Shown here piece after piece: positions 10,960-37,197 of a stretch of DNA of 64,000 bases. The notes beneath the pieces are model-generated. The model had not been told where the DNA came from. It did no database searches and worked only from the letters and a program-made list of their open reading frames with translations. Origin of the DNA: Chrysomallon squamiferum (Eukaryota > Animalia > Mollusca); contig CM022675.1 in NCBI GenBank assembly GCA_012295275.1, positions 6,076,001-6,140,000 on the forward strand, read 5' to 3'. The position numbers and the translations under genes were made by a program. Numbering within the stretch: position 1 is the stretch's first letter; every line of letters begins with the position of its first letter.

Positions 10960-11383
10960 ATGGATGATGAAAAAGAGTATTCAGACAACACTATAGATGC
11001 ATATATTTCTGACTCAGATGATGAAAAAGAGGATTCAGACAGCACTATAGATGCATATATTTCTGAATTAGATGATGAAATAGAGGATTCAGACAGCACT
11101 ATAGATGCATATATTTCTGAATTAGATGATGAAATAGAGGATTCAGACAGCACTATAGATGCATATATTTCTGAATTAGATGATGAAATAGAGGATTCAG
11201 ACAGCACTATAGATGCATATATTTCTGAATTAGATGATGAAATAGAGGATTCTGACAACACTACAACTGCATCTACTTCTAATTCAGATGATGAAAAAGA
11301 GGATTCAAACAACACCATAGCTACAACTACTTCTAACTCGTATACTGCTCAGCCACAAGTGTCAAGCATCTCATTTTTTGAAG
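10960..11383 (+). CDS. Copy 2 exon A: start exon with seven 54-bp acidic repeats
   Basis: cttacag| acceptor at 10949, ATG 10960, units DDEIEDSDSTIDAYISEL, donor GAAG|gtaatt, phase 1. Confidence 0.85.
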
Positions 11384-11950
11384 GTAATTAATAACACAGT
11401 AGTTTTCTACAATTTAATTCTGTTGCTTTTACTTTCACTTTAAACTGTCTGCTGACAATTTTAAGGTTATATCACTACTGGAAAAATAAAGAATTAGTTT
11501 GGTTTGTACACACACAGTTCTCTGACTGATATTGACAAAAATTAACAATTTATAGAGTTTTATGTCGTATTTCGTTGACACATGAAAACTGTAAAACAAC
11601 ACATACACTAATTACTATTTGATTACAATCATCACCACTGTAATTATTATTCGATTTACTTCACTAATTGTAATACTGTAAAGTAATACTTATTTCTCTG
11701 CATCTACAAAAATAATCAGTTAATACATTTTTTTTAAATATTGTTATATTTAATAATAACAGATTTATTAATACTGTATTCTGCCATTGTTCCCTATATA
11801 AATAAAATCTATTTTCATAAATTCTGTTTGTAAATATTGAAATACTACACAAAGTATCATTATTATCTCTATTAAATATTGAAAAAAATACTTTTTTTAA
11901 ATTCAGTTTAAAAACTGTCGATTTTAGTAACTTCATTTACCATTTTACAG

Positions 11951-12064
11951 ATCACAAAAGAAAACAGTTAGTGACAAAACCAAATGTGAACATCAGCACA
12001 GTTCAGAATCAACAGGCCCCATCTCGCAAGAAGAAAGTTCTGTTAGGAAAGCGAGTTAAAACTT
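11951..12064 (+). CDS. Copy 2 exon B1: basic variant exon
   Basis: 114 bp, phase 1-1, canonical sites; ..NVNISTVQNQQAPSRKKKVLLGKRVKT. Confidence 0.8.
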
Positions 12065-12115
12065 GTAAGTTAAAAACTAAAAGTTTTCTTTTCTATCAGA
12101 CTCTGCAGTCTGAAC

Positions 12116-12155
<40 letters not shown>

Positions 12156-12507: not shown

Positions 12508-12657
12508 CGAATACGGATGATGAAAAAGAGAATTCAGAAGTCAATTCTAAAACCAGAGGTGTTTCTTTCTCTGGCAACACCACAAATACATCTGCTCCTA
12601 ACTCAGATACTGTGCACCATTTACAGCCACAAGTGTCAAGTGTTACATCTTGTGAAG
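12508..12657 (+). CDS. Copy 2 exon A2: internal duplicate of the acidic exon
   Basis: ctcag| ... GAAG|gtaatt, 150 bp, open in phase 1-1; the former ATG is ACG (NTDDEKENSEV..QPQVSSVTSCE). Confidence 0.75.
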
Positions 12658-13101: not shown

Positions 13102-13218
13102 ATCATGCAAAACCACGATCAATGGCTGAACAAAATCTTAATTTCACCAGAGTTCAGAATTACCATAATCTATCTCATAACAGGAATGTTGTGATAGGAA
13201 ATCAAACTGTGAACACTA
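13102..13218 (+). CDS. Copy 2 exon B2: RHIM/cRHIM-like motif exon
   Basis: 117 bp, phase 1-1; EQNLNFTRVQNYHNLSHNRNVVIGNQTVNT. Confidence 0.8.
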
Positions 13219-13708: not shown

Positions 13709-13741
13709 CAAAGATTGACGGAAGAACATCCAATATTAAAG
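13709..13741 (+). CDS. Copy 2 micro-exon C (33 bp)
   Basis: gtttcag|CAAAGATTGACGGAAGAACATCCAATATTAAAG|gtaatt; KIDGRTSNIK; conserved at 29694 and 52358. Confidence 0.75.
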
Positions 13742-13952: not shown

Positions 13953-15800
13953 AGTCTACAAAGTCAGTTTTGAACTCAGTTCAGTGGAGTCTCTATGTTC
14001 AAACAAGAGCAGAAGAAATAGGTGTTGCAGTTTTGAAGAACAATGGTGTTGTGATTATAATAGGATGTCCAGGTTCAGGAAAGACAACTCTAGCTTTGAG
14101 CATGATGAAACAGATAGAAAATGAAGAGACAAGAGAACCTTACTTGCTGACTCATCACTCTGAATTCAATGATATCCCTGTATCTACAGATATAAAATGT
14201 GTTGTAGTTGTTGATGACATATTTGGTAAGACTAATCTCAGTTCACATTTTATGTCAGCTTGGCAACTGAAATATTTAAAGATGTGGAGTCTTGTTCTGG
14301 ATGGTTCTGTGAAATTGATTATTACCTTACGAAATCAAATATTTGCAGAATGTAAAACAAGTTTGAAGGACTCTGATCTGTTTAATGAGAATCATCTCCT
14401 TAACCTGCAGAGTGATGACTGTTGTCTGAATTATGATGAAAAGTATAGAATTCTAAACAAATATCTCAAACAAAAAGATGTTACAATGCACGAAGAGGAC
14501 AAAGAAACTGTCATTGAGGAATCATGTACAGAGCTAGGGTTTCCTCAGGTATGTGTGTATTATGTTAATTCAAGTGAGGCACGAAAAAGAGGAGTTGAGT
14601 TTTTTAAGAAACCTGTGGAGTATCTCAAATAAGAACTTGAAAATATGTAAAGTGACAAATCCTTACAGACCAATTACAAAACACACTAGTCTCACACATA
14701 TACAGACAGTAACTGATGTAATGTCTGGTACCTATTTGAAATGTTATGACCATAGATACATATTTATTCACCAGTCAGTGTTTGACAGTTTGTTTCTGAT
14801 GTATCTGTGTAAAACAGAAAATATGTATCAGAAAATCAACTTTTGGATATTTCTTGTTTATTTGGTGATGAAGATGTAGTGAGTGTTTTTTTTTTCTAAA
14901 ATCAGTTGTTATTCCAACTGTTGACACACTAAGTTTAGCTGCATGTTCCAAAACAGATAATTTTATCATACCAAATAAACTGTTGTGATATAAAAAGATG
15001 AATTTGAGTAAGTATTCCTCGTTGTTAAATCTTTCAATCTATTCATGTAACATGAATGTTGCCTTTTTTTGGCTGACATTATAAATATTGATTTGTATTT
15101 ACTGGAACATGGAGCTGATCCTAATATGGCAAACAGTGTAACAATTCTGTTTTACATCTAGCGGCTAAACATGGAAATATAAAAATTGTGACAGCACTGA
15201 TTGAAAAAGGTGTTGATGTTAACATTGTAAACAACAAAGGCAAAACTCCTCTTCAGACAGCTCTAAATTGTTATGAGCGGTATTCATATAAACATTGTCA
15301 AGTAGTTTTATATTTACTGAAACATGGAGCTGACCTTAATTTAAGAGACAGTGATAACAATTCTGTTTTACTCATGGCAGCGAAACGTGGTAATTAATAA
15401 AGGTATAGATGTAAATATTATAAACAATTGAAGTGAATCCCCTCTTATTATAGTTGTGATGTACAAAGACGACCAAGTAGTATTGCATTTACTGGAACAC
15501 AGAAATTGTGGTATTCAACAGACAGTGATAACAATTGTCTTTTATAGAAAGCAGCAAAATGTGGAAATGTAGAATTCTGAAAGCACTGATTGAAAAAGGT
15601 GTTGATGTAAATATTAAAAACATTGAAGGTGAAACTTTTCTACTTACAGCTGAGAACGTTAAACGGAACAAAGTAGTTTTTTTTTTAAATTTTATAGAAC
15701 ATAGAGCTGATCCTAATATAACACAAATATTAGGAAAATAGAGAAATTGTGAGAGCAGTGATTGATAAATGTGCTGATATAAATCTTAAAAGCGGTCGTA
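13953..15800 (+). pseudogene. Copy 2 main exon: STAND NTPase with nonsense codon, deletions and ankyrin remnants
   Basis: GCPGSGKTT and VVVVDDIFG intact; TAA at 14630-14632; then deleted/frameshifted linker and ankyrin fragments (15090-15800), ending at the LTR element. Confidence 0.9.
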
Positions 15801-15803
15801 GTG

Positions 15804-16855: not shown

Positions 16856-19040
16856 ATGGGCAAAGGTTTGTTGGATCAAGTTACCATCGCACAAATTAAG
16901 TATTGCAAGCGGGTAGAATTAGTAGTGTTAGCAGAAGAAAGGAATCTTTCAATTGAGGAGTCTGAAACAATAGTGGAGATCAGAGATATGATAATAGACA
17001 AATTATTTGAAGATCTTATTGAACAGAGTGAAATGGAAGGTGAGAAAGAGATAGAAAGTGGAGATGATGAAATTAGGGAAGAAGGTTCACGAGCTGGACT
17101 GTATTAGAGAGTGCTAGTTTGACTGTGAATCAGAAAATAGAATTAAAGAAATTAGATTGGAAGAAAAACGAATGCAGATGGAAGAAAAACGGTTAGACAA
17201 AGAGATGGAACAGAGACAGTTAGAGAGTTGGAAGTGACTAAACTTAGAATGGTTCATGAACATAGAATGGAATATCGCGAAAATAGCTTAAACAGTGACG
17301 CAGGCGCAAGTAGTTTCAAAATTACTGAAGCATATCACTACTGGTAACCGTTTGAAGAAGATAAGGTAGACAGATTCTTTCAGTCATTTGAAAGGATGGC
17401 GCGGCAGTTAGACTGGCCTGAAGACAAATGGTCATTACTAGTGCAAGATAGATTAACAGGGAAGGCCAATGACGCATGTAATTCGTTAGTTGAACAGAAT
17501 GCTAAGGATTGTCATAGATTAAAATAGGCACTGTAAAGAGTATACCAGCTAACCAATGTAGCAGTTTAGACATTTAAAAAAATCCGAATCCGAAACTTAT
17601 TGTGACTTTCAAGACAAAAAGGCAGGTTTATTTCATATTTTCTTAAGATTCCAGAATGTCAATGGTAAGTTTGAAACGTTAAGAGAATTAATGATGTTAA
17701 AAGAATTCAAACGATCGTTACCTTTGCCTATGCTAGTTCATTTAGAGGACTAAAATATCTATAATACTTGGCAGTCAACTGGTAATCGACTTTCTACAGA
17801 TAGGAATATTCGGACAAATGGTTCAGATTTTAAACATAAGTTGAGTCCTGGGTCAGTTGATAAGAGATGGACCAGCCAGGCTGAGTCTCAACAATCTACT
17901 GGTGCTAGCCATTCTAAGTTATTTACTGGGACTAAATCTTTTATGTCCTAGATGCAGTTATTGTCACATGACTAATCATTTAATTGCGAATTGTTTTAAG
18001 GGGAAAAGAGATAATGATAAAGTTGTTGGACTTGTTCAGAGGAATAGGAATTTGGAGACAGTTAGGTTCCTAGATATGCCAAGTAGGAATAAAGTTGACA
18101 GCTATGTGTTTACTAGCGAGATTTGCAATGTGTTGCAAACAGATATTCCTAAGTCATTATGAATTTTCAGAGATACCGGGGTATATCACAGTTTAATACT
18201 GGAAAATGCCCTAAATAAAATATCTTATACACAGACAGGAAGATGTGTAAGTATTAGAGCTGTACGTGGATCGTGTATGAACATTCCATTAGTCGAGGTG
18301 ATTCAGCGATAGAAATTTGTGACAGGTAATGTAGTGTTAGGAGTTATAGGTCAGTTACCATGTGTGAAGGTTGATTTGTTACTTGGAAATGACTTAACAG
18401 ACAGATGTTGTCAGAAAGGTTGTGATATTTTAGAAGTAGCAGAGTCGCCTGCTGTAGCTGAACCAGAAGTAGATACATTATTGTATCCGGCTTGCGCTAC
18501 TACCAGATCCATATCGGCTAAAGCTAAATTGCCAGATGTAGAAGTTTTAGATTTGTCAGAAACGTTTATAAGTCATTCAGCAGAGAGCGAAGCAGCAAAG
18601 AGTAATGCTAGCATATCGGCTGATACGTCGGGACCACGTGATCAATAGTAATAAGCAATAAGGAACCACCAGTAATGTGTGATATTTCGCCTGTGCCTAG
18701 GGACAAAAGAAAGTCTCTGCCGAGATTCAAATAAAGAATTCTCCCCTTTTGAACTAGTGCATGGACCCAAACCAAAGGGGCTTCTTAAGTTAATTAAGGG
18801 CAGCTGCTTACAGGAAAACAGTTCAGGAAATTTACTAAACCAAGTTTCAAGAATTAAAGAAAAACTTTGTCAAAAATTAGCGAAAATGCATCTTAACGTT
18901 GCGCAAACAAAAATCAAAACCCATTTTGATAAGAAAGCTAAGTTTAGGGAATTTAACCAGGGGGATAAAGTAATGTTATACTTACCATTACAAAAAGCTT
19001 CTTTACAATGTAAATATTTCGGACCATATGTAATTAACAA
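16856..19040 (+). mobile_element. Degenerate Gmr1-like Ty3/Gypsy internal region: gag, zinc knuckle, protease, integrase C-terminus
   Basis: gag PFEEDKVDRFFQSFERMARQLDWPEDKW; CSYCHMTNHLIANC (CCHC); protease FRDTG (~18166) and DLLLGND; integrase tail FSPFELVHG..GDKV..GPY. No RT or 3' LTR; many stops. Confidence 0.85.
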
Positions 19041-19289
19041 ACAAACAAACAAGGAAACAAACAAATAACAAAGGATTGAACTATTCATAAAAAGAACTTC
19101 ACACTTGTCGTCATACAACTTCGAATTGTAAAGACGTCGACTTCAAGATAACTGTATAATTATTAGAATCAATAAAATTAAAACGTTTATTTAGCCTTAT
19201 GTTATTTATTAAACTATTTGTGATCTTTATGCGAATGCCAGTAAACAAACAAATAAATAATTATCACACATAAACAATGTAATCGGGAG

Positions 19290-19447
19290 TAACCGGGTAC
19301 AAAGTACACAAAATAATAATCTCGAGGATTCACGCGACTTTGAATCACGCGATTAAAATGGCGGCTTGTTTTCAGGCGGCTGTCATTGCGCAAACTAAAA
19401 TGAAAAGATTACAAGGAATTTGTTAGTTAATTACTTCTATTTTGAAG
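19290..19447 (+). promoter_or_regulatory. Promoter/exon-1 paralog (also 20995-21153, 42190-42347, 43900-44057)
   Basis: YY1-type AAAATGGCGG at 19355, 21061, 42255, 43965; donors GAAG|gtgagt or |gtaagg; GC box GGGGCGTGGC about 100 bp into the intron. Confidence 0.6.
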
Positions 19448-20639
19448 GTGAGTGTATATTTAATTTATTTCTTCATATTCAGTTTCATTTTTTAATAATA
19501 TGCCACTGTATTTACATGCAATATTAATTATAGCTCATGAGCCATGATGGGGGCGTGGCAGAAATATTTTACACAAAACTATTACACACCATTAATGTAT
19601 TTAAAATATAAAAGTTAAATATCTACTTAATTATTACTTCTAACTGTTTACGTGTATCGTGGGATTAACAGACAAATATAAAAAATCGAAACGATGTTTG
19701 TTAATTACCATGAAAAGTGACTGAGCTGTGAGATTTTTAGTACTGGACGTCTGGGACCGTATGGGAACCCGTAGAAAATAATGAATTTCGAAATAAGTTA
19801 CCCGTCTCTTAGAAATATCAGTTACATAGACATTTTTATCACTAGATGGGCGATACTATTATTATTATAACTTAGAAGAAAGGATTGTCATGTTGTTCAT
19901 TATTTTCTAAACATAAAAAACTTACAAATTATTAATTGCTAACAAAGATAAAAAAAAGTCAAGATATTACTTGTCAAATGCTCAGATATTTTAGTACTAT
20001 TCATTTTGAAATATTTCTTTTCCATTGTTTCTTTCTTTGTTGTGTTGTTGTTGTTGTGGTGTTCTTCTTCTTCTTCTTCTTCTTCATTTAAATCAATTAA
20101 CAACAATGTTTGTATATATACATACATATATATATATATTTGTGTGTATATGGATGTGTGTGTGTATATGTGAAGATATATCTGTGTTTTCTCAAGGTAT
20201 TTTCAGTTTTACTAAACATATAATAATGCACCAAATTCTGCATCGAAAACAATATTGTGGTTGAAATTCCCTTGACATTTGAAATTTCAGTGTTGATATT
20301 GTCTTTTGTTTTAGAAAGATTACTCTGTCAGTTTTAACTGGCCTCCTTGTGGGATAATCTTGAGACAAGAAAAAACACAACTTTATGGAAAATGTTCTTC
20401 TTTTATACAGTATTTCTAGCTTTTCTATATAGTGTGAAGTTCCATGTGTATCGAAATAATGATTCGAAGATAATGGCCGTTTATCCTAATTACTAAAGAT
20501 TCATAAAGGTATGGTTACAAAATGTCCTCCCCAAAAGAAGTTTTCTAGTATTTTTTATGTGGTTCTTTAGAAGAAAGATGAATACTTAGTTAATTGATGA
20601 TTTTGTGCACAAATCCTAAAACCAATAAAAAATTACCTA

Positions 20640-20945
20640 CTATATGAAATATTGAAATTGTGACAACAGTTATTGAAAAAGGTGTTGTTGTAAATATTAA
20701 AAACAATGCAGGTAAAATTTCTCTTCTGATAGGTTATCACTACAAACACAACAACGTAGCTTCGTTTTTACTGGAGCATGGAGCTGATCCTCATTTAGCA
20801 GACAGATATAACACTTCTGTTTTACACGTAGTATTTTAACGTGGAAATATTGAAATTGTAACAGCACTGACTGAAAAAGGCAGTGATGTAAATATCAAAA
20901 GTAACAGAGGTTAAACTCCTCTTCATAGAGCTTTAAATTATGGCC
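20640..20945 (+). pseudogene. Orphan ankyrin fragment (paralog 43545-43850; second relic 23150-23280 / 46175-46285)
   Basis: EIVTTVIEKGVVVNIKNNAGK..LLEHGADPHLADRYNTSVLH with stops; lies between promoter copies. Confidence 0.8.
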
Positions 20946-22479
20946 AGTAAACAAATAAATAAATAATTATCACACATAAACAATGTAATCGGGAGTAACC
21001 GGGTACAAAGTACACAAAATAATAATCTCGAGGATTCACGCGACTTTGAATCACGCGATTAAAATGGCGGTTTGTTTTCAGGCGGTTGTCATTGCTCAAA
21101 CTAAAATGAAAATATTACAAGGAATCTGTTAGTTAATTTCTTCTATTTTGAAGGTAAGGGTATATTTAATTGATTTCTTCATATTCAGTTTCATTTTTTA
21201 ATAATATGTTAGTGTATTTACATGCAATATTAACTATATCTCATGAGCCATGATGGGGGCGTGGCAGAAATATTTTACACAAACATATTACACACCATTA
21301 ATGTATTTAAAATATAAAAGTCTATATATCTACTTAATTATTACTTCTAACTGTTTTCGTGTATCGTGTGATTAACAGATAAATATAAAAAATCGAAACG
21401 ATGTTTTTTAATTACAATGAAACGTGACTGAGCTGTGAGATGTTTAGTAATGTCAAAAGCTGAATTTCTCAGAATCATTGATTCGGAAAATTGCTTTTTA
21501 AGTCACCCCTTATGTTTAATTCTGAAGATCATAGCAACCATGTATTTTTAGTCGCTTTATGTCCTAAAACTTTGAAAAAAGTTTGGTTAGAGTTTCAGCA
21601 AGAATGAATTAGTATTTATCAGTGTTCTCACCTCATGTGTTAACATTTGTCTGAGTTTAAAGAAAAGTGACTAAACTGCCATTTTTGACATCAGTGAATT
21701 AAATCGCGATTGATTTATTTATTATTATTTTTTTTTTTTAATTATTATTATTACTACTTTTTTACATTGTAGTTTCCCATAATATATTCGAAATTCTGCA
21801 TTTTTAAAGTATTTAGTCATGATATTGATTAATACCTTATAAGGTATTAAAATGACACAGGTTTACGTTTAAAACAAAAAATGAAATAGGTGTAAAGATC
21901 TTTAAACAGCACATCATAACTTTCTTGACACATATAAGTTAATTTTTCACACTTATGTGTTAAAAGGACTTCAAGCATATGATATTTAACCATAATCCTC
22001 TACAAAATACGATTTCGGCTAATCCGTGGAGCGCACTCCAGAATGGTGTAGCAGGTACTTATTATTGTAGTCTGGGATCGTATGTGAACCCGTGGAAAAT
22101 AATGAATTAAGAAATAAGTTACCCGTCTCTTCTAAATATCAGTTACGTAGACATTTGTATCACTAGGTGGGCGATACTCGAAATGGTTTTCATTTACCAC
22201 CTCTGATCAGCCAATCATAAAGTGCCCACCTTTCAAAGGAGAAAGATTATTATTATTGATACTATTATTATTATTATTATTGTTGTTGTTGTTATTATTA
22301 TTACTTAGAAAAAAAAATGCTCAGATATTTCAGTACTATTCATTTTGAAATAATTCTTCTTCTTTGTTGCTTTCTATGTTGTGTTGTTGTTGTTGTCCTT
22401 CTTCCTCTTCTTCTTTATTTAAATCAATTAACAACGTTTGTTTATAAATAGTTGTGTGTGTGTGAGTGTGTGTATGTGG

Positions 22480-22529
<50 letters not shown>

Positions 22530-23328
22530 TTTCTCAAGGTAGTTTCAGTTTTACTACAAACATAATAATGTACCAAATTCTGCATCGAAAACAATATTGT
22601 GGTTGAAATTCCCTTGACATTTGAAATTTCAGTGTTGATATTATCTTTTGTTTTAGAAAGATTACTCTGTCATTTTTAACTGGCCTCCTTGTGGGATAAT
22701 CTTGAATTCAGAAAAAAATTATTTTGAAATAAAAAAACAAACAACAAAAAACACAACATCTTGGCACATTTTCTGCTTTTATACCGTCTATTTCTAGCTT
22801 TTCTATATAGTGTAAAGTTCCATGTGTACCGAAATAATGATTAGAAGATAACGGCTTACCCTGGTATTTCTAACCTTAGTGCAATAAAAGCAGGCTGTTT
22901 ATCCTAATTACTAAAGATTCATAGAGGTATGGTTACCAAATGTGCTTCCCAAAAGAAGTTTTCCAATATATTGTATGTGGTTATTTAGGAGAAAGATGAA
23001 TACTTAGTTAATTGGTGATTTCGTGCACAAATCCTAAATTTACCTATTACATGATTAGATGATTATCTTTTTATTGGCCCATGCAAGAAGAGCTTACTTT
23101 TAGTCAAACTTAGATATCTTGGGTGTTGATGTGTCAAGCTGAACAGATGGTCATAATATTTCTGTTTTATTTATGGCAGTTGGATATGGAAATACTGAAA
23201 CTGCGACAGCACTGATTGGAAAAGATGTTGATGTAAATATTAAAAACAATTAAGGTGAAACTGCTCTTCTTGCAGGTGTGATTTATTTCTTTTCAAAAGA
23301 AAAGAAACACAAAATAATAATAATAATA

Positions 23329-23373
<45 letters not shown>

Positions 23374-24359: not shown

Positions 24360-24545
24360 TAGGTCGTGTGCCACGCGATAGAAACGCGATGTGCATGCGT
24401 TTATTTATAGGTTTATTTAATCAGTTGTCAATGAACCAATGAGATCAACAGCTGGCGCATGACCTTCCCTTTTCTACCACGTGATCAAAATCGTTTCAGT
24501 TGTGAGCTTTAAAAGGTGTGCGTTCTAAGCAAATTAACAGGTTGA
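24360..24545. promoter_or_regulatory. Second CpG-containing promoter-like patch (paralog 47328-47510)
   Basis: CGCG motifs, CCAAT and CACGTG in otherwise CpG-poor DNA; target gene and orientation uncertain. Confidence 0.35.
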
Positions 24546-25199
24546 AAATATTAAAAATAATAAAAATAAATAGTAATTGAAAATAATATAAAATAAAAAT
24601 CAACAATAACAATACAAAAACCCCTAAAACAAATACATTTGTTTTCAGCCATAGACGCACAGAATAACGAAAATAATAATAATAAAATTTAAGATGTGTA
24701 ATACAAAATTAGATATGAAGACAAAGAAAGCTTTGCATTTAGTCTCAGTTTACATTAATCTATGCAATAAAATATATAGATATAGATATAATGTATATGT
24801 ATATTCAATACCAAAGTCATTGAGAAAAAACCCACAGTGTAAATGAACAGACACACACACATATACTGAGGAAGCCATCTACAATACTCAAAATATATAT
24901 ATGAAGACTAAAACGGCAACAAAATGCAGTTGAATAACACTACTATATAAAGAGTTTATTGCAGTCAAATCATATAGGAAACACATCAATATGATATCTC
25001 GCACACACAAACAAACACACGCACAGACACGGAAACATACACGTACAAATACACAAACTCAGAAATACACACAAACACATACACAGCCACAGAGATACTC
25101 GCACACACCAGAGATGACTGCGATAAACTGGAATCATTAACTCTACAGTTTATCTTTACTCTGATATGATAACTAAAATCACAACTTTAAAATACTGGG

Positions 25200-25874
25200 T
25201 CTAAAGGTAAACATGTCTACATCAATATGTAAAACAAGTAAAATACTTCAACAGCTAGCTATACATCAAGATGATGTACGTATGAAAAATACTAAAAATA
25301 TTATTGCATAAACATTTGGTGAAAATAAAAATGCAAAACAAGTATTCTTAAGTATTATAATAATCTCTCCATCGACTGTGTACATAATTTATTTGAAAAA
25401 CTTATACAGCCAATTTTATTGTATGGTTGTCGAATACGGGTTTTACATATATACAACTAATAGACTGATTCCATATGAAATTTTTATGTACCCCTGATTT
25501 TAGGATCTATGATGAACTAAGACTGTGTCGCCTTTGTATTTACATAAAAGCAAGAATGATAACCTTGGAGATGAATATCATTATATATTTGAAAGTAATG
25601 TTCCTATATTATTAAATGCAAAAAAAAATGTATACCAGATAAATATTTGCGACATCCAAATGTAAGTTCATATACTAATATGTTTAACAGTAAAAATATA
25701 TTTGTATTAAAAAAGCTATGTTTGTTAATAAGAACTATATGTGACAGAGTATGTCCTCCACGTTAACCTTTCATGCATGTACATTTTAAATTTGTTTCCA
25801 TGTGTCTGTAATACGTTCTTCTCTGTACTCTTATCCTACAGTTTATGACAATAAAACCATTGTCATTGTCATTG
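25200..25874 (+). mobile_element. 5'-truncated non-LTR (LINE) 3' fragment (paralog ~48165-48853)
   Basis: LFEKLIQPILLYGC.. RT C-terminus, then RLCRLC..DEYHYIF, stop, AATAAA and a (CATTGT)n tail. Confidence 0.75.
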
Positions 25875-26195
25875 CTAAGTTGTATATCTAAATAAGAAAT
25901 ATAGCTTTGACTGCAAAACAAAAGTTACCTAGCATTTGACCATTTTTGACAGTTTCACTGATGGTGCTAATACAAATTTAAAGGAAAAAGAAAAAAGTTT
26001 TGAAAAATAAATATATAATATTAAAAAAAGAAGAAGAAATAGTCATTAGGTTTCTTATTCGGTATTTGTGCAATAATACAGGTACTTTTAATTAAGCAGA
26101 TCTACTACTTAGAACATTTTAATTGAAATAACATAACAAATATGGTTAATGCAATGAAAACTGGAAGTGAAGCTTAATTAGCAAACATTCATAGA

Positions 26196-26237
<42 letters not shown>

Positions 26238-27392
26238 TGTTCTACTGTAGGTTATTTTGTGCTTCTTTGGGTGAAAGATGAATATATAATTGAGGGTTTT
26301 ATATACAATTCCTGAAATATGATCATTAACAGTAAACATCATCATTTCAAAATATCGTTGTCCAAAACAGTAATCATTGTTTCTATTGTTTCTTAGCGAA
26401 ATTGTCTTTCACTACAGTGTCTGGAATACCAAACAAATTTGTTAAATTTCATGAGAATGTTCACATTTATCATGTGTAAATATTAACTCTTATTTAAATA
26501 GCACAAATAGAAGGATAAGATACACTCATTTGTAAGCAAAAGAAACATCAATTGGTGAACTTTGTGATTTTACTGCAAATATTCTTTGATGTCTGTCTCC
26601 AGTTGCATATTATGTAAAGATACAATAAAAACAGAGAAGCTGGAGGCAGGCATGGTTAATTTTCCTGAATCAAAGGTCCATGGTTTTGTATTTACCAAAG
26701 GAAAGAATAGCTGATGCATTCCAGCAGCTGGAGGTTTCAAAGGCTGATTTCTGTTAAATCAGTAGTCAGGGACCGTATAGGAACCAGTAGAAAACAATGT
26801 ATAGAAAATAAGTTCCAAGTGTCTTTGAAACATCAGTTATTTGAATTTTGATACATAATGCAATATGTGCAAATTTCTTGATATTTTAAGCTGCCATGGG
26901 GAGCAGCTAAATATTAAAAGCACACCCTGGGTGTGTGTGTGACGAAAGATTATCATTATTATTATCTGGAAGAAAGAACTGTACTTGTGATTTTTCTTGA
27001 CAGTTGAGCGTGTACTTTGATATTTTGTCTCATGTACATTGCTTTCTAAACATACAAAACTTGTAAATTATTAGTTGCCCCCAAAAATTGAGAAATGTAG
27101 AAGACATTTTTCAAATGCTCAATCATGTTAGTTCTCTTCATTTTAATTTTAATTTTTTTTGTTGCTTAAGTCAGTTTTCATCAATATTTGTACATCTATT
27201 CAGATACACCTCTCTTTTCAGAAGGTAGCTTTAGTTTTCTTATAAACATAATAACAAAGCCAAGTCTGCATCAAAACAAATATTTTGGTTGAAATTTCAA
27301 AACTGATTTTCTTTATTTTCATTTATTTATTTTTTTAAATTTACTCTGTCATCTTAAACTGGTGTCCTTGTAGGATAATCTAGAATTCAAGG

Positions 27393-27449
<57 letters not shown>

Positions 27450-28331
27450 TTTTATCTTTCCTGAATTCTAGATAACTCCTAGGGGTGGTGTATATATATA
27501 TACACTAACACTTTGATGGAATTCAGATTGCGTAATCAAATTTGTTAGTTCAATCACAGATCCACTCCTTTTATTTTTAAGCGATGGAATTGAAATTGCG
27601 CATCCTTAATTGCAATTACAATCCAAAGGCCCTTTTGTTATTTCTGCTAATTTTTCAAATCTGTGGATTTGTTATAAAAAAAGACTGGCGTTTGGTAAAT
27701 AAAGTAAGCGAAGTAAGCGATAGCGAAGAAAACGGTTAAGACGAGAATTCGGTCAGAGGGGAAACCAATGTTTTTGAATGACATTGCCTTTACAGACAAG
27801 TATGGTAAGCAATTGTCTATTCTTAATTTGATACGGTGTAATGTGCAATTAACCTGTGTCAATAACATTTATTATAAAACTTTAAGGTTTTAATCTGTCC
27901 TTCGTGCAGATTCTTATTTTTTCTTGGTTTTTCGTATGACCTTTGTCTTATCATTAATCAAAATTACTTAAACGTATGTTTTATGACTGTATAATGCATT
28001 ATTATCAAGTCACCTGTATTTCATAATTAACTGGTGTTGTGTTTATTTCTCTGATGGATAAATAGACTTTATTGATTTATATAGATTGCTGTCAATTTAG
28101 CTTTTATATTCTTTGTTAGGTGGCCATAGACTGAGCCATAAAAAAAACTATATAAAGTGTTTAAAGGTGTGAACCCCGTGATATACACACATGACCTATG
28201 CGTGCGTGTATGTGTGTGTTTATTTAACAGAATCCAATGTCACAATATAACAACAAAACTTAAACACAGAACTGAATGTAATATTAGCAATCTATCAGTA
28301 ATGTAAACTGATATTTTACATTTCAGCCAAT

Positions 28332-28526
28332 ATGGATGATGAAAAAAAGGATTCAGACAACACCACAGCTGCATCTACTTCTGTCTCAGATGATGAAAAG
28401 ATGAGGACATCACAGCTGCATCTACTTCTGACTCAGATGATGAAAAAGAGGAGGACATCACAGCAGCAACTACTTCAGACATGGATACTGCACAGCCACA
28501 AGTGTCAACAATCACATCTTGTAAAG
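28332..28526 (+). CDS. Copy 3 exon A: acidic exon (3 units) with a 1-bp deletion
   Basis: tttcag| at 28326, ATG 28332; GAAAAG vs GAAAAAG near 28400 shifts the frame; downstream in-frame ATG at 28481; donor AAAG|gtaatt. Confidence 0.75.
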
Positions 28527-29125
28527 GTAATTAATAGCACAGTAGTTTTCTACAATTAGTTTACTAATTTGATGGGCAGATCAAAACAAACAAAATTAAT
28601 TTGATAAATGTAACAGTGCAGTTTTTCAGTATATTGTTTAATCTCAAACAGTTCTACTCTGACAGAGGACAAAGTTATTGTTTATTTCTGTTGTTTTTAC
28701 TTTCACTTTAAAGTGTGTGCTGACAATTTTATGGTTATAACACTACTGAACATACACTCTTTTCAGGTTTATATTGATAAAAAATTAACAGTTCAAAACA
28801 TTTTATCTCCTGTTTATTTGAAACATGAAAACTGTAAAGCAAAACACACACTGATTACTCTTTCATTGCAATCATGACTGTTGTAATTATTCTTCTATTT
28901 ACTTTTGTTTATTTTAATACTATCAAGGAATAGTTATTTGTTAGCATCTACAAAAATAATCAGTTAACAAACAATATTAAACCGATTTTTTTTATACAGT
29001 TATATTTAAAAATAATACATTTTATTAATACTGTATCCTGTACTGTTCTATATATAGATAAAAAAACATTTTTACAAATTGTTTCTAAGCAGTGCATTTA
29101 AGTCAGTTCATTTACCATTTTACAG

Positions 29126-29242
29126 ATCACACAAGAACACAGAGAGTGACAGAACAAAATGTAAATATCAGCTGAGTTCACAATTACCATGCCCTATCTC
29201 ATAACAAAAATGTTGTGATAGGAAATCAATTTGTGAACACTA
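29126..29242 (+). pseudogene. Copy 3 exon B: RHIM-like exon with in-frame TGA
   Basis: 117 bp, canonical sites; EQNVNIS*VHNYHALSHNKNVVIGNQFVNT; TGA at 29173-29175. Confidence 0.8.
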
Positions 29243-29321
29243 GTAAGTTAAAAACTGAAGGTTTTTGTTTTTTTGCAAGATTGATAGATAATCATTAGCA
29301 CTTTTCTACCAGACTCTGTGA

Positions 29322-29369
<48 letters not shown>

Positions 29370-29693
29370 TTCTAAATGGTGTGAATGTTTCAGTGATCTT
29401 AAAAGATCATCAATAAATATTGAAATGCTATGCAAAGTATCTATGAAACAACAACAACAACAATAACAACAATGGCAAAATCAATTAGAACAATAAATAA
29501 ATTAATAATATTATCAAGAAACAGCAACAATAGCAGTACTGATTATAGTAAAATCAATCAGAAAGATATAATAATGTTACACATTTGACCTTTTAAGACT
29601 CAGCTGTAGCGTAATTGTACAGATTGCTGTTAATAATTCTTGTTTACTTCTAAACAACAGAAAGTTATTGTTTTTATTTTTATATTATTTCAG

Positions 29694-29726
29694 TAAAGAG
29701 TGATGGAAGAGCATCAAATATGAAAG
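29694..29726 (+). CDS. Copy 3 micro-exon C
   Basis: atttcag| ... AAAG|gtgatt, 33 bp, KSDGRASNMK, phase 1-1. Confidence 0.75.
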
Positions 29727-29929
29727 GTGATTTTTTGTCCTTACATTGTTTTGAAAAATGTCCATTAATAACAAAATAATCATCTATTTGCTTTTAATCT
29801 TAACATTGATGAATAAATATTATAAACTAATTCTTACTAAGAAATAATAAAGTTAATGTTTATATAGTACAAACAATTATAAAACAGTTTATAACAGATT
29901 TTAATATTTTTTAACTTCTTCTGATGCAG

Positions 29930-32900
29930 TGTCTACCACATCAAGGATAAACTCAATTGATTGGAATCTCTACGTTGAAACAAGAGCAGAAGAAATAGGT
30001 GTTGCACTTTTGAAGAAGAAAGGTGTTCTGATTGTAATAGGCTGTCCAGGTTCAGGAAAGACAACTCTAGCTTTCAGCATGATGAGACAGATAGAAAAAG
30101 AAGAGAAAAGAGAATCTTACTTGCTGACTCACCACACTGAATTCAATGATATCCCTATATCGAAAGATAAAAAATGTATTATTCTCATCGATGACATATT
30201 TGGTAAAACTAATCTCATTTCAGATTTTAGGCTGTCATGGCAACCAAAATTTCCAACGGTATGGAGTCTTGTTCAGGATGGTTCTGTGAAATGTATTATT
30301 ACCTTACGAAATCAAATATTTGCAGAAAGTAAAACCAGTTTGAAGGAATTTGATCTGTTTAATGACAATCATCTTCTTGATCTTCAGAGTTATGAATTTT
30401 GTCTCAGTTGGGATGAAAAGAATAAAATTCTAAACAAATATCTCAAACAAAAAGATGTTACAATGGAGGAACATGACAAACGGGATGTCATTCACAGATC
30501 ATGTACAGAGCTAGGATTTCCTCAGGTATGTGTTTATTATGTTAATTCGAGTGATGCACAAAAAAGAGGAGTTGAGTTTTTTGAGAAACCTGTAGAATAT
30601 CTGAGAGAACAATTGGGAAATATGAAAAGTGAGCAATCCTTACAGATCAATTATCTCGTTCTACTGCTGATCATGTTTCAGCAAGGCAGTCTCAGTGTTG
30701 ATTTGTTGAACCCATTTGAAAATGACACTGACAAAAGTGACATAATGGAATTAGTAAGAGTGCTGGAGGGTGCCTGTCTGAGTTTAAAAGACACAAGTCT
30801 CACACATATAAAAGCAGCAGCTGATGTAATGTGTGGCACCTATTTGAACTGTTACAACAATAGATACACATTTATTCATCAATCAGTGTTTGACTGTTTG
30901 TTTCTGATGTTTTCATCAGAATTTCCAAAGATAGCAGCAGAGTTGCTAGAAGTGTGTCCTGTCTCCATGTTGTTAGAGTATGTTGTGACGCCTGGAGTGT
31001 CTAACAAAAGTCACACTACAATGACTGTGAAACCTGGCTGCTTTGATGTTCTTGCTCGCAGATTTACTGACTTGCTGGCATCAAGCAGAGCCAGAGAAAT
31101 TATTTCATATCCATCACTGAAAGATGAAGAGTTTCTAAAATATCTCATTGAGAAAAAACACTTCTATGGTAAATTGTCCGAAATACTGCATCAGAATCTG
31201 CATCGAGTAAGGCATTATTTAGCATTTCGGGTATGTGAAGATTTCCTTCATAAATTTGAGAAAATTGTACATTTCCATTACAGCGATTCAGAGTACTGGA
31301 AATCATCCTACTGGTCTTTGATAGTTAAAGAAAGAAGGATGTATTCGTCATCTCTTGCAAGTGAATGTGTTGTGAATGGCCTGAGGACACTGTCGAGGTG
31401 TTTCACATCAGATCTGTGTAAAATGGAATCCGACTATAACAAAAAAGAAGTTTTGAATATTTCTTGTTTGTTTGGTGATGAAGATGTTGTGAAAATGTTG
31501 TTACAATCAGGTGCTGTTCCAACACCAGATACTTTCAGTGCAGCTGCACGTTCAGAAACCGATAATGTTACCATACTGAAAGAACTGTTACAGTATACAA
31601 AGGTGAATTTGAAACAGTATTCCCGGTCGTTACAACTTTCAATTTATTCACGTAACATGAACATTGCCTGTTTTTTGGCTGACTTTATGAATAATGAGGA
31701 AGGCAACAGTAAATTCAAGGAAGAAATTGTAAAACTATTATTGGTTAAGTTCCATGGACAAGTGAAACCATTCACTGAAGAATATGTTGATACAAGCTCT
31801 CTTTTTAAGAAACTGGTTACCATTGAAATAATAAACAAAATTGAAAACATTGCCATCATTGCGGCTGGTCAGATAAATTCAGGAGTTATAAAAGAAATAG
31901 TAAAACTGAAACCTGATTGTTTAAATGATGAGAACAGAGATAAAGTTCTTTTAGCAGCAGCAATGTGGGGTTCTGGTGACACCGTGGCTTTCCTCATTAA
32001 ACAGATACACAATGACACAGATGAGAACAGCTGGAAGAAAAGTCAAGTACTGAAAGTAGCAGTGATGTTTAACACCGCAGATGTTGTTCAGTGTCTACTT
32101 GATAAAGGAGCTGATCCTAATGCTAATGTAGCTGTTAATAGGACATTGATTCAATGGTTTGAAAAGAAAACTGGATTAGAATGTTTGGATTCTGACTCAC
32201 CTCTCCATATCTCAGTCCGGCTTGGTGACTTAGATTTGTTGAAATCACTGGTAAAAAGAAATGCTGATGTTAATGCATTGAACAGTCAGGGAAAAACTCC
32301 ACTTCATGATGCTGTAATTGTAAAGGAACATAGAAAAGAATTAGCTTTGTTTTTGCTAGAAAATGGAGCTGATATTAACATTACAGATCAGAATAACAAT
32401 TCAGCTTTACACCTAGCAGCTACACTTGGATATCTGGATGTTCTGACAATACTTTTTGAAAATGGTGCTAAGGTGAACATTATTAACAACGAAAGCAAAA
32501 CTCCTCTTTTTGCAGCCCTCACTTCTTATGAACGACATCTATCTCTGAATTGTTACAAAAAGCATCAATCTGCAAGTGATAAACGATGGAAAGTTGTTTT
32601 CTATCTAGTGGAACATGGAGCTGATCCTAATATAACAGACAGTGATAACAATTCTGTTTTACATTTAGCAGCTGAATATGCAAAAATAGAAATTGTCACA
32701 GCGCTGATAGAAAAAGGTGCTGATGTAAATATTAGAAACAATGAAGGTAAAACTCCTCTTCTTACAGCTATAAATCATCAATACCTCTGCCACGATTCTC
32801 TTAATGATGAACATTGTGCAGTAGTTTTGTATTTGCTGGAACATGGAGCTGATCCTTTCTTGACAGACTGTGATAACAATTGTGTTTTACACTTAGCACC

Positions 32901-35900
32901 TCAAGTAAACAAAATTGAAATTTTGAAAGCACTCATAGAAAAAAGTGTTGATGTCAATATTAAAAACAGTAGAGGTGAAACTCCTCTTTATACAGCTATA
33001 AACAGATATAAATATGGTACATACTTTGATGATAAACATTGCGAAATAATTTTGTATTTACTTGCACAGGGAGCTGAACCTAATTTAATAGACAGTGATA
33101 GCAATTCTGTTTTACACTTAGCAGCTAAACATGGAAAAATAGAAATTGTGACAGCACTGATAGAAAAAGGTGTTGATATAAACATTAGAAACAATGAAGG
33201 TGAAACTGCTCTTTTTAGAGCTGTTAACTGTTACCAAAACAAAGTAGTTTTGTATTTGCTGGAACATGGAGCTGATCCTAATTTAAGAGACAGTGAAAAC
33301 AATTCTGTTTTACACTTAGCAGCTAAATATGGAACAATAGAAGTTGTGACAGCACTGATTGAAAAAGGTGTTGATGTAAATATTAGAAACAATGAAGGTG
33401 AAACTCCTCTTCTTACAGCTATAGATCATCAATACCTCTGTGATGGTTCTCGTAATGAACATTGTGCAGTAGTTTTGTATTTGCTGGAACATGGAGCTGA
33501 TCCTAATTTAACAGACTGTAACAACAATTCTGTTTTACACTTAGCAGCTAAATATGGAACAATAGAAGTTGTGACTGCACTGATTGAAAAAGGTGTTGAT
33601 GTAAATATTAGAAACAATGAAGGTGAAACTCCTCTTCTTACAGCTATAGATCATCAATACCTCTGTGATGGTTCTCGTAATGAACATTGTGCAGTAGTTT
33701 TGTATTTGCTGGAACATGGAGCTGATCCTAATTTAACAGACTGTAACAACAATTCTGTTTTACACTTAGCAGCTAAATATGGAACAACTGAAGTTGTGAC
33801 AGCTCTGATTGAAAAAGGTGTTGCTGTAAATATTAGAAACGATGATGGTAAAACTCCTCTTTTTATAGCTGTGAACTCTCAACAGAACAAAGTAGTTTTG
33901 TATTTGCTGGAACATGGAGCCGATCCTAATTTAACAGACAGATATAAGAATTCTTCTTTACACATAGCAGCTAAAATTAGAAATATAGAAACTGTGAAAA
34001 CTCTGATTGAGAAAGGTGCTAAAGTGAATATTGTAAACATAGAACATAAAACTCCTCTATATACAGCTGTATACAACAGACAGAACGAAGTTGCTGATTA
34101 TTTACTGCAACATGGAGCTGACCCTGAATTAAAAGACAGATATAATAATTCTGTTTTACACACAGCAGCTAAACAAGGATATGTAGACATTGTGAGAACA
34201 TTGATAAAATACGGTGTTGATATCAGTATTAGAAACAATGAAGGTAAAACTCCTCTTTTCACAGCTCATCTCTACAAACAGAACAATGTAGTTCTCTGTT
34301 TACTAGAACATGGAGCTGATCCTCATTTAATAGACAGATGTAACAATTTTGTTTTACACATAGCGGCTAAAGAAGGAAATATAGAACGTGTGACAGCACT
34401 GGTAAAAAACGGTGTTGATAAGAATATTAGAAACAATGAAGGTAAAACTCCTCTTTCTACAGCTCATTTCTTCAAACAAAACAAAGTAGTTTTGTGTTTA
34501 CTGAAACATGGAGCTGATCCTCATTTAAAGGACAATGACAACAATTCTGTTTTACACATAGCAGCTAAGGAGGGAAATATAAAATTTGTCACAGCATTGA
34601 TCAATGAAAGTGTTGATATAAATATTAAAAACAATAAAGGTGAAACTCCTCTTTTTGCAGCTGTTCTCTTCACACAGAACGATGTAGTTTTCTGGTTGCT
34701 GGAACATGGAGCCGATCCTCATTTAAAAGACAATGACAACAATTCTGTTTTACACATAGCAGCTAAAAAGGGAAATACAGAGATTGTCAGAGCATTGATT
34801 AATAAAAGTGTTGATGTGAATATCAAAAACAATAAAGGTGAAACTCCTCTTTTTACAGCTGTTCTCTTCACACAGAACGATGTAGTTTTGTGGTTGCTGG
34901 AACATGGAGCTGATCCTCATTTAAAAGACAATGACAACAATTCTGTTTTACACATAGCAGCTAAAAAGGGATATAAAAAAATTGTCAGAGCATTGATTAA
35001 TAAAAGTGTTGATGTGAATATCAAAAACAATAAAGGTGAAACTCCTCTTTTTACAGCTGTTCTCTTCACACAGAACGATGTAGTTTTGTGGTTGCTGGAA
35101 CATGGAGCTGATCATCATTTAAAGGACAATGACAACAATTCTGTTTTACACATAGCGGCTAAAGAGGGAAATACAGAGATTGTCAGAGCATTGATTAATA
35201 AAAGTGTTGATGTGAATATCAAAAACAAAAAAGGTGAAACTCCTCTTCATCTAGCTGTGGACCGCAAACAGTCCAAAATAGTTTTGTGTTTGCTAGAACA
35301 TGGAGCCGATCCTCATTTAAAGGACAATGACAACAATTCTGTTTTACACATAGCGGCTAAAGAGGGAAATACAGAGATTGTCAGAGCATTGATTAATAAA
35401 AGTGTTGATGTGAATATTAAAAACAATAAAGGTGAAACGCCTCTTTTGACAGCTGTTCATTACGTACAGAATAATGTAGTTTTGTGTTTACTGGAACTTG
35501 GAGCTGATCCTCATTTAAAGTACAATGACAACAATTCTGTTTTACACATAGCGGCTAAAGAGCGAAATATAGAAATTGTCAGAGCATTGATTAATAAAAG
35601 TGTTGATGTGAATATTAAAAACAAAAAAGGTGAAACTCCTCTTCATCTAGCTGTGAACCGCAAACAGTCCAAAATAGTTTTGTGTTTGCTAGAACATGGA
35701 GCCGATCCTCATTTAAAGGACAATGACAACAATTCTGTTTTACACATAGCGGCTAAAGAGGGAAATACAGAGATTGTCAGAGCATTGATTAATAAAAGTG
35801 TTGATGTGAATATCAAAAACAATAAAGGTGAAACTCCTCTTTTTACAGCTGTTCTCTTCACACAGAACGATGTAGTTTTGTGGTTGCTGGAACATGGAGC

Positions 35901-37197
35901 TGATCCTCATTTAAAAGACAATGACAACAATTCTGTTTTACACATAGCAGCTAAAAAGGGATATAAAAAAATTGTCAGAGCATTGATTAATAAAAGTGTT
36001 GATGTGAATATTAAAAACAATAAAGGTGAAACGCCTCTTTTGACAGCTGTTCATTATGTACAGAATAATGTAGTTTTGTGTTTACTGGAACTTGGAGCTG
36101 ATCCTCATTTAAAGTACAATGACAACAATTCTGTTTTACACAGAACAGCTGAACAGGGAAATATAGAAATTGTCAGAGCATTGATTAATAAAAGTGTTGA
36201 TGTGAATATTAAAAACAATAAAGGTGAAACGCCTCTTTCTACAGCTCATTTCTTCAGACAAAACAAAGTAGTTCACTGTTTACTGAAACATGGAGCTGAT
36301 CCTCATTTGAAAAACAGATTTAACAATTCTGTTTTATACATAGCAGCTAAAAAGGGAAATATAAAAATTGTCAGAGTATTGATCAATGAAAGTGTTGATA
36401 TAAATATCAAAAACAATAAAGGTGAAACTCCTCTTTTTACAGCTGTTCTCTTCACACAGAACGATGTAGTTTTGTGGTTGCTGGAACATGGAGCCGATCC
36501 TCATTTAAAAGACAATGACAACAATTCTGTTTTACACATAGCAGCTAAAAAGGGAAATATAGAAATTGTCAGAGCATTGATTAATAAAAGTGTTGATGTA
36601 AATATTAAAAACAATAAAGGTGAAACTCCTCTTTCTACAGCTCATTTCTTCAAACAAAACAATGTAGTTCACTGTTTACTGGAATGTGGAGCTGATCCTC
36701 ATTTGAAAAACAGATTTAACAATTCTGTTTTACACATAGCAGCTAAGGAGGGAAATATAAAAATTGTCAGAGCATTGATCAATGAAAGTGTTGACATGAA
36801 TATTAAAAACAATAAAGGTCAAACTCCTCTTTTTGTAGCTGTTCTCTTCACACAGAACGATGTAGTTTTGTGTTTACTGGAACATGGAGCTGATCCTAAT
36901 TTAACAGACACTGACAACAATTCTGTTTTACACATAGCAGCTAAAAAGGGAAATACAGAGATTGTCAGAGCATTGATTAATAAAAGTGTTGATGTAAATA
37001 TTATAAACAATGAATGTGAAACTCCTCTTCTTACAGCTATGAAACACAAACAGTCCAAAATAGTTTTATGTTTACTGGAACATGGAGCTGATCCTAATTT
37101 AACGGACATTGACGAGAATTCAGCCTTAGATGTAGCAGCTGAACATGGATTAACAGAAGTTGTGATGACTCTTGTGGAAAGAGGTGTTGATGTATAA
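29930..37197 (+). CDS. Copy 3 main exon: STAND (nSTAND3-like) NTPase + helical linker + about 50 ankyrin repeats; NLR-like receptor
   Basis: 7268 bp open exon after tgcag|. Walker A GCPGSGKTT (30040), Walker B IILIDDIFG, sensor CIITLR, GxP motif LGFP, winged-helix FIHQSV; ankyrins from ~32040 to the end. Confidence 0.92.
34250..37190 (+). repeat. Coding tandem array of ~15 x 198-bp (two-ankyrin, 66 aa) units with high internal identity
   Basis: Repeating GADPHLKDNDNNSVLHIAAKxG..IVRALINKSVDVNIKNNKGETPLxxAxxxxQ at 198-bp period. Confidence 0.95.

Follow-up and report, generated by a model that had tools for sequence, protein, structure and literature searches.

The window, that is, the whole 64-kb stretch of DNA analysed here, holds four tandem, lesioned nSTAND3-ankyrin paralogs, copies A to D, all on the forward strand. 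Their phase-1 exons follow one plan: exon A (acidic repeats), exon B (N/Q-rich), exon C (linker) and exon D, a single large exon encoding nSTAND3 and ankyrins. Spliced models, RNA joints and Pfam agree on this build and bear out the anatomy drawn in an earlier note on this DNA. The note placed the family at 10960..37197; copies B and C do lie inside that span, but two further copies lie outside it (15-4796 and 51284-55632). It also held that no copy is lesion-free, and damage is found in all four.

In copy C, exon A (28327..28526, ATG at 28332) carries acidic repeats with a frameshift inside, and exon B (29126..29242) contains a motif core at 29194-29229 and an in-frame TGA at 29173-29175 that is replaced in most RNA contigs. 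Exon C (29694..29726) is joined to exons B and D by RNA contigs, and the giant exon D (29930..37197) is open for 2,422 codons, encoding the nSTAND3 module, a helical region and about 50 ankyrin repeats, with a frameshift that takes off the last ~35 residues. Copy B begins with exon A1 (10960..11383), which has an ATG, acidic 18-residue (54-nt) tandem repeats and a phase-1 donor; it is followed by exon B1 (11951..12064), a lysine-substituted motif copy with seven of its last 28 residues charged, and by exon A2 (12508..12657), a second acidic Ser/Thr spacer of symmetric phase 1. The open, N/Q-rich motif exon B2 (13102..13218; core LSHNRNVVIGNQ at 13170-13205), the 11-codon linker exon C (13709..13741) and exon D (13953..15790) complete the copy, the nSTAND3 frame being open up to a stop at 14630-14632 and deleted and decayed thereafter. 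Spliced in frame, copy B has GT..AG introns throughout and internal exons that are all multiples of three, and its first stop is codon 506.

The front exons of copy A (15..1838) comprise A1 (15-168, donor mutated), the basic B1 (744-851), A2 (1003-1150, frameshifted) and the N/Q-type B2 (1722-1838); at its exon D remnant (2109..4796) the copy has lost exon C together with the Walker A/B part, and the remaining NTPase module and ankyrins are open. The copy D front (51284..52390) retains an open exon A (51284-51436) and exon C (52358-52390, donor mutated), exon B being deleted, and its exon D (52596..55632) encodes nSTAND3 and a short ankyrin array with a 1-nt frameshift near 53990. The window thus contains five exons B, three N/Q-rich and two lysine-substituted (both B1). 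All four copies are proposed to have fallen victim to birth-and-death turnover, with expressed alleles or paralogs as the genes that still work.

The RNA evidence consists entirely of contigs from a single study; taken from four of its runs, they join A to B, B to C and C to D in copy C (28524/6>29124/6, 29242>29694 and 29724/6>29928/30). The B-C and C-D joints are present in all four runs, and a 470-nt contig (X4 record 23) spans D, C and B into the letters of exon A. These joints support the splicing of exon B, by way of exon C, onto the NTPase exon, as the earlier note had predicted, and no transcript of copy C that skips exon B is found among the joints listed. G29174C, which removes the exon-B stop of copy C, accounts for 76.5 of 86.8, 26.9 of 26.9, 36.3 of 36.3 and 38.9 of 38.9 of depth in the four runs, and the expression of relatives lacking this stop is thus supported. 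A further exon upstream of copy C (donor 27804) joins letters absent from the window.

The NTPase belongs to the STAND class, as first proposed: Pfam nSTAND3 (PF20720) scores are 86.3 bits for copy C, 89.0 for copy B and 92.5 for copy D against a cut-off of 27.2, with copy A, which is without the P-loop part, below it at 17.9; NACHT scores (13.7-24.2 bits) stay under the Pfam cut-off of 26.7. In copy C, Walker A (30040-30063), the Walker B Asp-Asp (30190-30195), GFP (30514-30522) and FIH (30871-30879) can be located in exon D, and the key residues G37, G40, G42, K43, D87, D88, R126, G195, F196, P197, F314 and H316, covering Walker A, Walker B, sensor-1 Arg, GxP and the winged-helix His, each occur in 88-100% of 147 aligned cores. 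A PDB sequence search with the NTPase gave nothing but chance P-loop matches. The AlphaFold model (pLDDT 90.1) predicts an NBD-HD1-WHD fold whose best structure matches are the NB-ARC of NRC1/NRC2, MalT, Apaf-1, NLRC4 and NLRP3 (256-340 aligned residues); with Avs5 included, the matches have Z of 13-15 and rmsd of 3.8-6.2. Pfam finds nSTAND3 and ankyrins and, in line with the earlier note, nothing at E<=0.1 from the death-fold, TIR or LRR families, so the window genes do not have the death fold-NACHT-LRR build of canonical animal NLRs. That they encode an NLR-like STAND sensor is very probable.

The sensor end of copy C contains sixteen double-ankyrin units (33847..37014) of 66 residues (198 nt), with a mean DNA identity of 84% and a maximum of 99.5%, in which variable blocks are shuffled against a highly conserved background. 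High internal conservation likewise marks the repeats of fungal NLRs (PMC12881547), and the ankyrin units thus have the internally conserved, non-LRR character of NWD2-type sensor repeats. A second NWD2-type trait, a short motif with no folded effector before the NTPase, is found here by spliced models, RNA joints and Pfam together.

That short motif is encoded by exon B. In the three N/Q-type exons its core reads N-V-V-[IL]-G, and the 12-residue core shows one or two conservative differences among the three copies vs six to nine in the first 14 residues. The peptide is N/Q-rich, proline-free and low in charge, and has RHIM-like spacing. Its VVIG or VVLG agrees with the loose RHIM/cRHIM core, VxxG or IxxG, in which the Gly is invariant and the surrounding stretch hydrophobic and beta-prone (PMC9387487); this is by itself a weak criterion. 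The description of the motif as RHIM-like thus stands for the spacing and for the presence of a similar motif in relatives, but not for the canonical Gly and Gln: the strict G-phi-Q-phi-G core is missing from all five exon-B peptides, and Pfam RHIM, run without a known-RHIM positive control, matched none of them and none of 16 segments from relatives. Gene models often leave out the 117-nt exon that encodes the motif, and because of this ORF-based annotation yields "ankyrin-like", much as the earlier note had expected. A four-copy complex prediction of exon B2 (ipSAE 0.01) speaks neither for nor against self-assembly. Exon B is probably a conserved interaction motif; that it works by amyloid-type templating is predicted with slightly less than even confidence.

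The relatives extend the picture beyond the window. An nSTAND3 family search gave 1,008 representatives at E<=0.001, their mollusc origin checked for part only, and the nearest relatives of the window genes are Gigantopelta proteins, with sister cores VQFG (twice), VHVG and VQIP. A first homolog search yielded five proteins whose N-termini were short or missing; by itself it would have suggested, wrongly, a motif private to the window genes. Aligned in register, exon B matches P0110 (p 0.0002) and P0037 (p 0.00045); 13 of 76 upstream regions match it at p<0.05, with 3.8 expected, and family-wide query shuffles give p of 0.016 and 0.010. The pattern phi-x4-[GN]-phi-x-phi-G, defined post hoc with the sequences already seen, occurs in 9 of the 76 regions (5 species) and is absent from 67, where shuffled sequences give 0.58 (max 5 of 2000). 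The motif stands 66-121 residues before Walker A in relatives and 64 in exon B, so that a similar motif does sit at the same place. None of the three outcomes that the earlier note named as refuting it was observed. The slot before the mollusc NTPase is otherwise filled by a caspase, DED, HEPN, SAM or DUF4559 domain (18 proteins, chosen by eye), and caspase, DED, HEPN or SAM domains are found in many members of the family. P0042 and P0044 have an N-terminal domain that by eye resembles TIR, a likeness unconfirmed by Pfam. What is new, as judged from sequence comparison, is that across molluscs one slot appears to hold either a folded effector or a short RHIM-spaced motif. The motif does not always replace a fold, because in Argopecten P0121 it stands behind a DED.

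The window shows no effector carrying the motif in its 64 kb, as previously noted. With the Gigantopelta P0010 motif, no candidate sharing three 5-residue words was obtained, which means that such a search is blind to partners at the expected divergence. The P0104 motif returned four of six candidates, all short Argopecten proteins on the same contig as receptors, and these may be truncated receptors. The scallop proteins P0156 and P0157 have a DED-spacer-motif layout.

The locus is read here as a set of spliced nSTAND3-ankyrin genes clustered in tandem, which likely encode immune sensors of a snail. A short RHIM-spaced peptide likely stands where a folded signalling domain would be, and amyloid-like stacking with a partner protein is its predicted way of passing the signal; belief and doubt in this proposal are about evenly balanced. 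The ankyrin array would bind a foreign or damage ligand, as STAND biology and the shuffled, variable repeat blocks lead us to infer. The NTPase module, whose fold is predicted, would then open and oligomerise, packing the exon-B peptides on their disordered acidic tether into a beta-stack. The stack could in turn recruit a partner whose motif is compatible, for instance a death-fold adaptor, a caspase or a kinase from another locus; no such partner was found.

The strongest competitor, a serious but unlikely one, is sensor-helper pairing, in which the receptors co-oligomerise through the NTPase with caspase, DED, HEPN or SAM paralogs and exon B is a non-amyloid beta-strand docking or autoinhibitory motif. 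Effector-bearing members in other molluscs, the company of motif and DED in P0121, and the shortfall of exon B from the canonical RHIM core are all consistent with pairing, as are the NTPase filaments that the bacterial nSTAND3 protein Avs5 forms according to PDB titles (PMC11897194). However, Pfam detects no effector in the six of eight sister-clade proteins scanned, and the motif retains its RHIM-like spacing and is still rich in N/Q, free of proline and low in charge.

It is less probable still that these are ordinary decaying mollusc nSTAND3-ankyrin receptors whose front exons form a lineage-specific disordered tether, RHIM likeness arising by chance and shared N/V/I/G composition. Database results fit such a tether: Pfam has no family at E<=10 for any of the five exon-B peptides, a PDB sequence search no match at E<=10 for exon B2, and the ESM Atlas no usable match for exon B2 or the P0146 motif. 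An unsupervised motif search in 67 regions (400 starts on real data, 120 on shuffles) found a Haliotis-type GMTGG instead, against which exon B scores p of 0.07-0.57. Copy D has lost exon B, both B1 exons are lysine-substituted, and whole exon B has a dN/dS near 0.8 (0.73-0.87 among three damaged copies, with synonymous change low in the core too). Yet composition-preserving shuffles of target and query both leave significant, order-specific in-register matches, and gastropods through bivalves keep the motif in position relative to Walker A. Very improbable is a bait or localisation module (a protease tripwire of the NLRP1/CARD8 kind, or nuclear targeting) with exon B in a charge-paired autoinhibitory leader: Asp/Glu-rich 18-residue repeats do alternate with Lys/Arg-rich B1 exons, and relatives' N-termini also show tandem repeats and basic patches, but the motif is conserved between lineages and the repeat sequences are not.

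In its strongest form, amyloid-like stacking through exon B becomes a tentative scheme for molluscs at large: fungal-style two-component amyloid signalling on an Avs5-class (nSTAND3) ankyrin receptor, whose cryptic RHIM-type motif, exon-swappable with caspase, DED, HEPN or SAM effectors, would seed partners in trans, with P0156/P0157 as possible adaptors, and whose ligand specificity might be renewed, as it is for the NWD genes of Podospora, when ankyrin units are reshuffled in concert. If true, a large family of mollusc receptors with a cryptic motif would bring within the range of amyloid-type immune signalling a phylum that is affected by major diseases in aquaculture. Short motif peptides are directly testable for fibril formation and cross-seeding. 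A review has asked whether RHIM is the sole signalling amyloid in animals (PMC7889193), and a nemertean study describes molluscs as without RHIM-bearing PGRP or Imd (PMC9835746).

The novelty claimed in the earlier note was overstated. Mollusc nSTAND3 + ankyrin proteins appear in the supplementary alignment list of Kaur et al. 2021 (PMC8195603, Figure 4 source data), where at least 11 rows for Crassostrea virginica have nSTAND3+Ankyrin as their last part. As listed there, the mollusc proteins share the NTPase clade and ankyrin sensor of the window genes, but the C. virginica rows have TM, TRADD-N and often HEPN in front, whereas the window genes have an acidic tether and short motif only; "RHIM" is absent from the main text, and in 12 of the 13 supplements, those searched, its occurrences are all chance runs of letters. 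Like the window family, the amphioxus RHIM-NACHT-repeat protein BF82280 (Kajava et al. 2014, PMC4262963) is a STAND receptor from an animal, and a RHIM-type motif occupies the usual position of a death fold. It differs in being a chordate NACHT protein with a profile-detected RHIM, the window family being molluscan nSTAND3-ankyrin with a motif that escapes Pfam. Among the papers listed by literature searches of openly accessible text, none describes mollusc nSTAND3 proteins as bearing a RHIM-like motif.

Among known systems, Avs5, a SIR2-nSTAND3-helical repeat protein, has the same NTPase family (10.1101/2025.07.08.663546), and its fold resembles that modelled for the window NTPase (9jap, Z 13.3, rmsd 6.2, 218 aligned); unlike the window genes, it is bacterial, with an enzymatic SIR2 effector and a TPR/Sel1/PPR sensor. 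RHIM and insect cRHIM share with exon B a VxxG core, an invariant Gly, N/Q richness and low-complexity flanks, and are sometimes tandem, but exon B lacks a Gly ahead of the core and has Val for Gln, and no RIPK- or Imd-like partner was found. RHIM, PP and BASS3 have G-phi-Q-phi-G in common, in contrast to the window core. Fungal NWD2/HET-S and PNT1/HELLP and bacterial BASS NLR/Bell differ in that the NTPase is NACHT or NB-ARC, the motif is N-terminal and the effector gene adjacent, whereas the window family has nSTAND3, an acidic region before the motif, no effector gene within 64 kb and a different core at G and Q. What they share with it is a STAND core, highly conserved internal non-LRR repeats and a short motif where an effector domain would otherwise be.

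The + strand of the window, AT-rich animal DNA (GC 23-36% per 2 kb), carries four tandem paralogs, each with several short phase-1 exons in front of a single large exon D. The exon anatomy given in the earlier note holds, as does its statement that no copy is lesion-free. Copy B is in frame through A1-B1-A2-B2-C-D (A, acidic repeats; B, N/Q-rich motif; C, linker; D, nSTAND3 and ankyrins) as far as a stop at codon 506 and is decayed beyond. Exon D of copy C is open for 2,422 codons; the lesions of this copy are two frameshifts, one in exon A and one ~35 codons short of the end, and a TGA in exon B. It could give a putative long motif-less protein via a Met in exon C or skipping of exon B. Copy A has lost exon C and the P-loop to a deletion, besides having a dead donor and a frameshift; in copy D, exon B is missing, the donor of exon C is mutated and there is a 1-nt frameshift. 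Copies C and D are products of a segmental duplication (19039-32777 and 41942-55379, 87-96% identity), and a ~200 bp deletion in copy D took little besides exon B. Stray ankyrin fragments with stops (20559-20935, 23142-23283, 43463-43839, 46151-46292) are remnants of further lost copies; short frames at 17845-19065 resemble, by eye, a decayed LTR-retroelement gag-pol, with only a weak zinc-finger match in Pfam.

In four RNA runs from one study the region is represented, at low word shares (0.10-0.20), by contigs that are mostly paralogs or alleles (85-99% identity) and indicate presence, being neither single molecules nor a measure of expression level. The anticipated splicing of exon B toward the NTPase exon is confirmed by the B>C joint (29242>29694, GT..AG) and the C>D joint (GT..AG with cut +2), both found in all four runs; the A>B joint falls at the GT..AG position in three of four listed rows, with loose ends in run X3. 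A 470-nt contig, record 23 of run X4, contains D, C and B plus 250 letters with an exon A-like end; it has three other letters and no gaps in exon B, and with one of these differences specified, its exon B is probably fully open. G29174C, which removes the exon-B stop of copy C, is present in nearly all RNA depth, and record 1 of run X1 carries the window's own TGA with zero differences; thus, one allele does have this stop, and stop-free expressed versions exist. Further RNA contigs (27661-28143) lie around and behind an upstream donor at 27804, marking a putative 5' exon or a repeated leader.

The proposed STAND class of the NTPase is upheld by profile, predicted fold and conserved motifs. 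Pfam nSTAND3 matches three of the four window copies at 86-92 bits (cut-off 27.2), and the NACHT and NB-ARC profiles both stay under their cut-offs. An AlphaFold model (44-sequence alignment, pLDDT 90.1, pTM 0.85) structurally matches NB-ARC, MalT, Apaf-1, NLRC4, NLRP3, Avs5 and SAMD9; Walker A/B, sensor-1, GFP and FIH are conserved in 88-100% of 147 cores, and the module is under purifying selection between copies C and D (dN/dS 0.37). Past the winged helix lie 50 codons (31159-31308 in copy C, 53816-53965 in copy D) in which 29 of the changes between the two copies are non-synonymous and 3 are synonymous (dN/dS 2.6, compared with 0.37 for the module); the predicted model has a beta-hairpin there, and the stretch may be a second specificity site. 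Downstream of the module follow about 50 ankyrin repeats (24 and 28 anchor motifs counted), including sixteen 66-residue units with a mean DNA identity of 84%. The double-ankyrin unit has variable blocks at its positions 6-15, and these reappear in mosaic fashion along the array (33847-37014), as expected from repeat shuffling.

A phmmer search of 1.84 billion representatives gave 1,008 matches at E<=0.001, the best 150 of which were examined; all 25 relatives with an organism name (30 looked up) are molluscs. In a FastTree tree of 147 cores (midpoint root), the window copies nest (support 0.999) together with eight proteins of Gigantopelta aegis, to which they are 38-49% identical, so the source animal is likely a related gastropod. 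The slot before the NTPase differs between these related proteins (P numbers): among 18 picked by eye, it holds a caspase (P0011), HEPN (P0103, and P0061 below cut-off), SAM (P0078, P0127), DUF4559 (P0128) or DED (P0070 and P0111, both below cut-off). In many others it is a disordered, often tandem-repeat tether with a short beta-rich motif alone. Such a motif is of GMTGG type in P0027, P0030, P0034 and P0035 and of VIN..IxA..V type in P0004, P0005, P0020, P0025 and P0031. These are two further motif kinds in the same slot of abalone-side relatives, so the mollusc family may have several motif families, as fungi do. Two close Gigantopelta aegis relatives, P0006 and P0007, begin with a hydrophobic, by eye membrane-anchor-like helix, followed by tether and motif.

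The exon-B peptide was compared using a pattern fixed after the data were seen, phi-x4-[GN]-phi-x-phi-G, which loosens the RIP1/RIP3 cores printed in PMC4262963 and has an assumed spacing. The pattern occurs in 9 of 76 upstream regions against a shuffle mean of 0.58, and in 0 and 2 equal-length control regions; the 76 come from 151 proteins, 75 being left out because the N-terminus was short (70) or an anchor was missing (5), and the nine matches span five species, three being Argopecten paralogs. All three N/Q-type exons fit, the expectation being 0.003 per 38 residues of the six-frame window. When exon B was aligned to the 76 regions without gaps and without a pattern, P0110 (p 0.0002), P0037 (p 0.00045), P0121 and P0095 ranked highest, their cores being in register (family-wide p 0.010-0.016); blind motif discovery on the relatives' upstream regions did not recover the RHIM-spaced motif. 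Given the cores of the Gigantopelta sisters (VKDCSNVQFG, VTGNQNVHVG, ISGNRNVQIP) and Potamilus P0146 (INNSSGVEIG), the window VVIG makes most sense as a variant core of phi-Q/H-phi-G type. The RHIM likeness claimed earlier survives in spacing and in the loose VxxG rule; the motif lacks the G-phi-Q-phi-G signature, and exon-B peptides have no Pfam match and relatives' motif segments none to RHIM. Modest but consistent sequence evidence points to a conserved, position-specific motif with RHIM-like spacing. In genes A (744-851) and B (11951-12064), the leading copy of exon B is Lys/Arg-rich and resembles a nuclear localisation signal; basic patches flank the motif in several relatives too.

The cluster is real and expressed, and the reading of its product as an NLR-like receptor that lacks a folded effector is sustained; gene structure, splicing, STAND class, shuffled sensor repeats and motif kinship are established. 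From STAND and amyloid-motif biology, the ankyrins would bind a ligand, the receptor would then oligomerise, the motifs would beta-stack and a partner would be recruited in trans. The 64-kb window encodes no motif-sharing partner, and protein searches needing three exact 5-mers gave no partner other than candidate scallop proteins. These short Argopecten irradians proteins, P0154-P0157, end shortly past the motif, and two of them start with a weak DED match; the DED-spacer-motif layout is compatible with an adaptor role, but the proteins may instead be receptor models that are truncated. The main rival is sensor-helper pairing, in which the receptors signal with effector-bearing paralogs; amyloid signalling to a partner is possible, though less likely than not.

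The window receptors are members of the known mollusc nSTAND3-ankyrin family: Kaur et al. (2021; PMC8195603) define nSTAND3 from bivalve TRADD-N proteins and already list nSTAND3+Ankyrin in oyster. CARD-RHIM sequences are known from bivalves (PMC12452177). Our literature search, which also covered passages of PMC7889193, 10.1101/2020.01.06.895854, PMC7885112, PMC9646362, PMC12261475, PMC9387487, PMC9835746, PMC12881547 and 10.1101/2025.07.08.663546, found no paper that describes a RHIM-like motif for these proteins. What is new is that, across gastropods and bivalves, nSTAND3-ankyrin is paired with a cryptic motif of RHIM spacing. An NWD2-like RHIM-NACHT-repeat protein is described from amphioxus by Kajava et al. 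(2014; PMC4262963). The earlier identification as amyloid-motif NLRs is putative as to RHIM protein identity and stands as to architecture, which the window receptors have in common with amyloid-motif NLRs.
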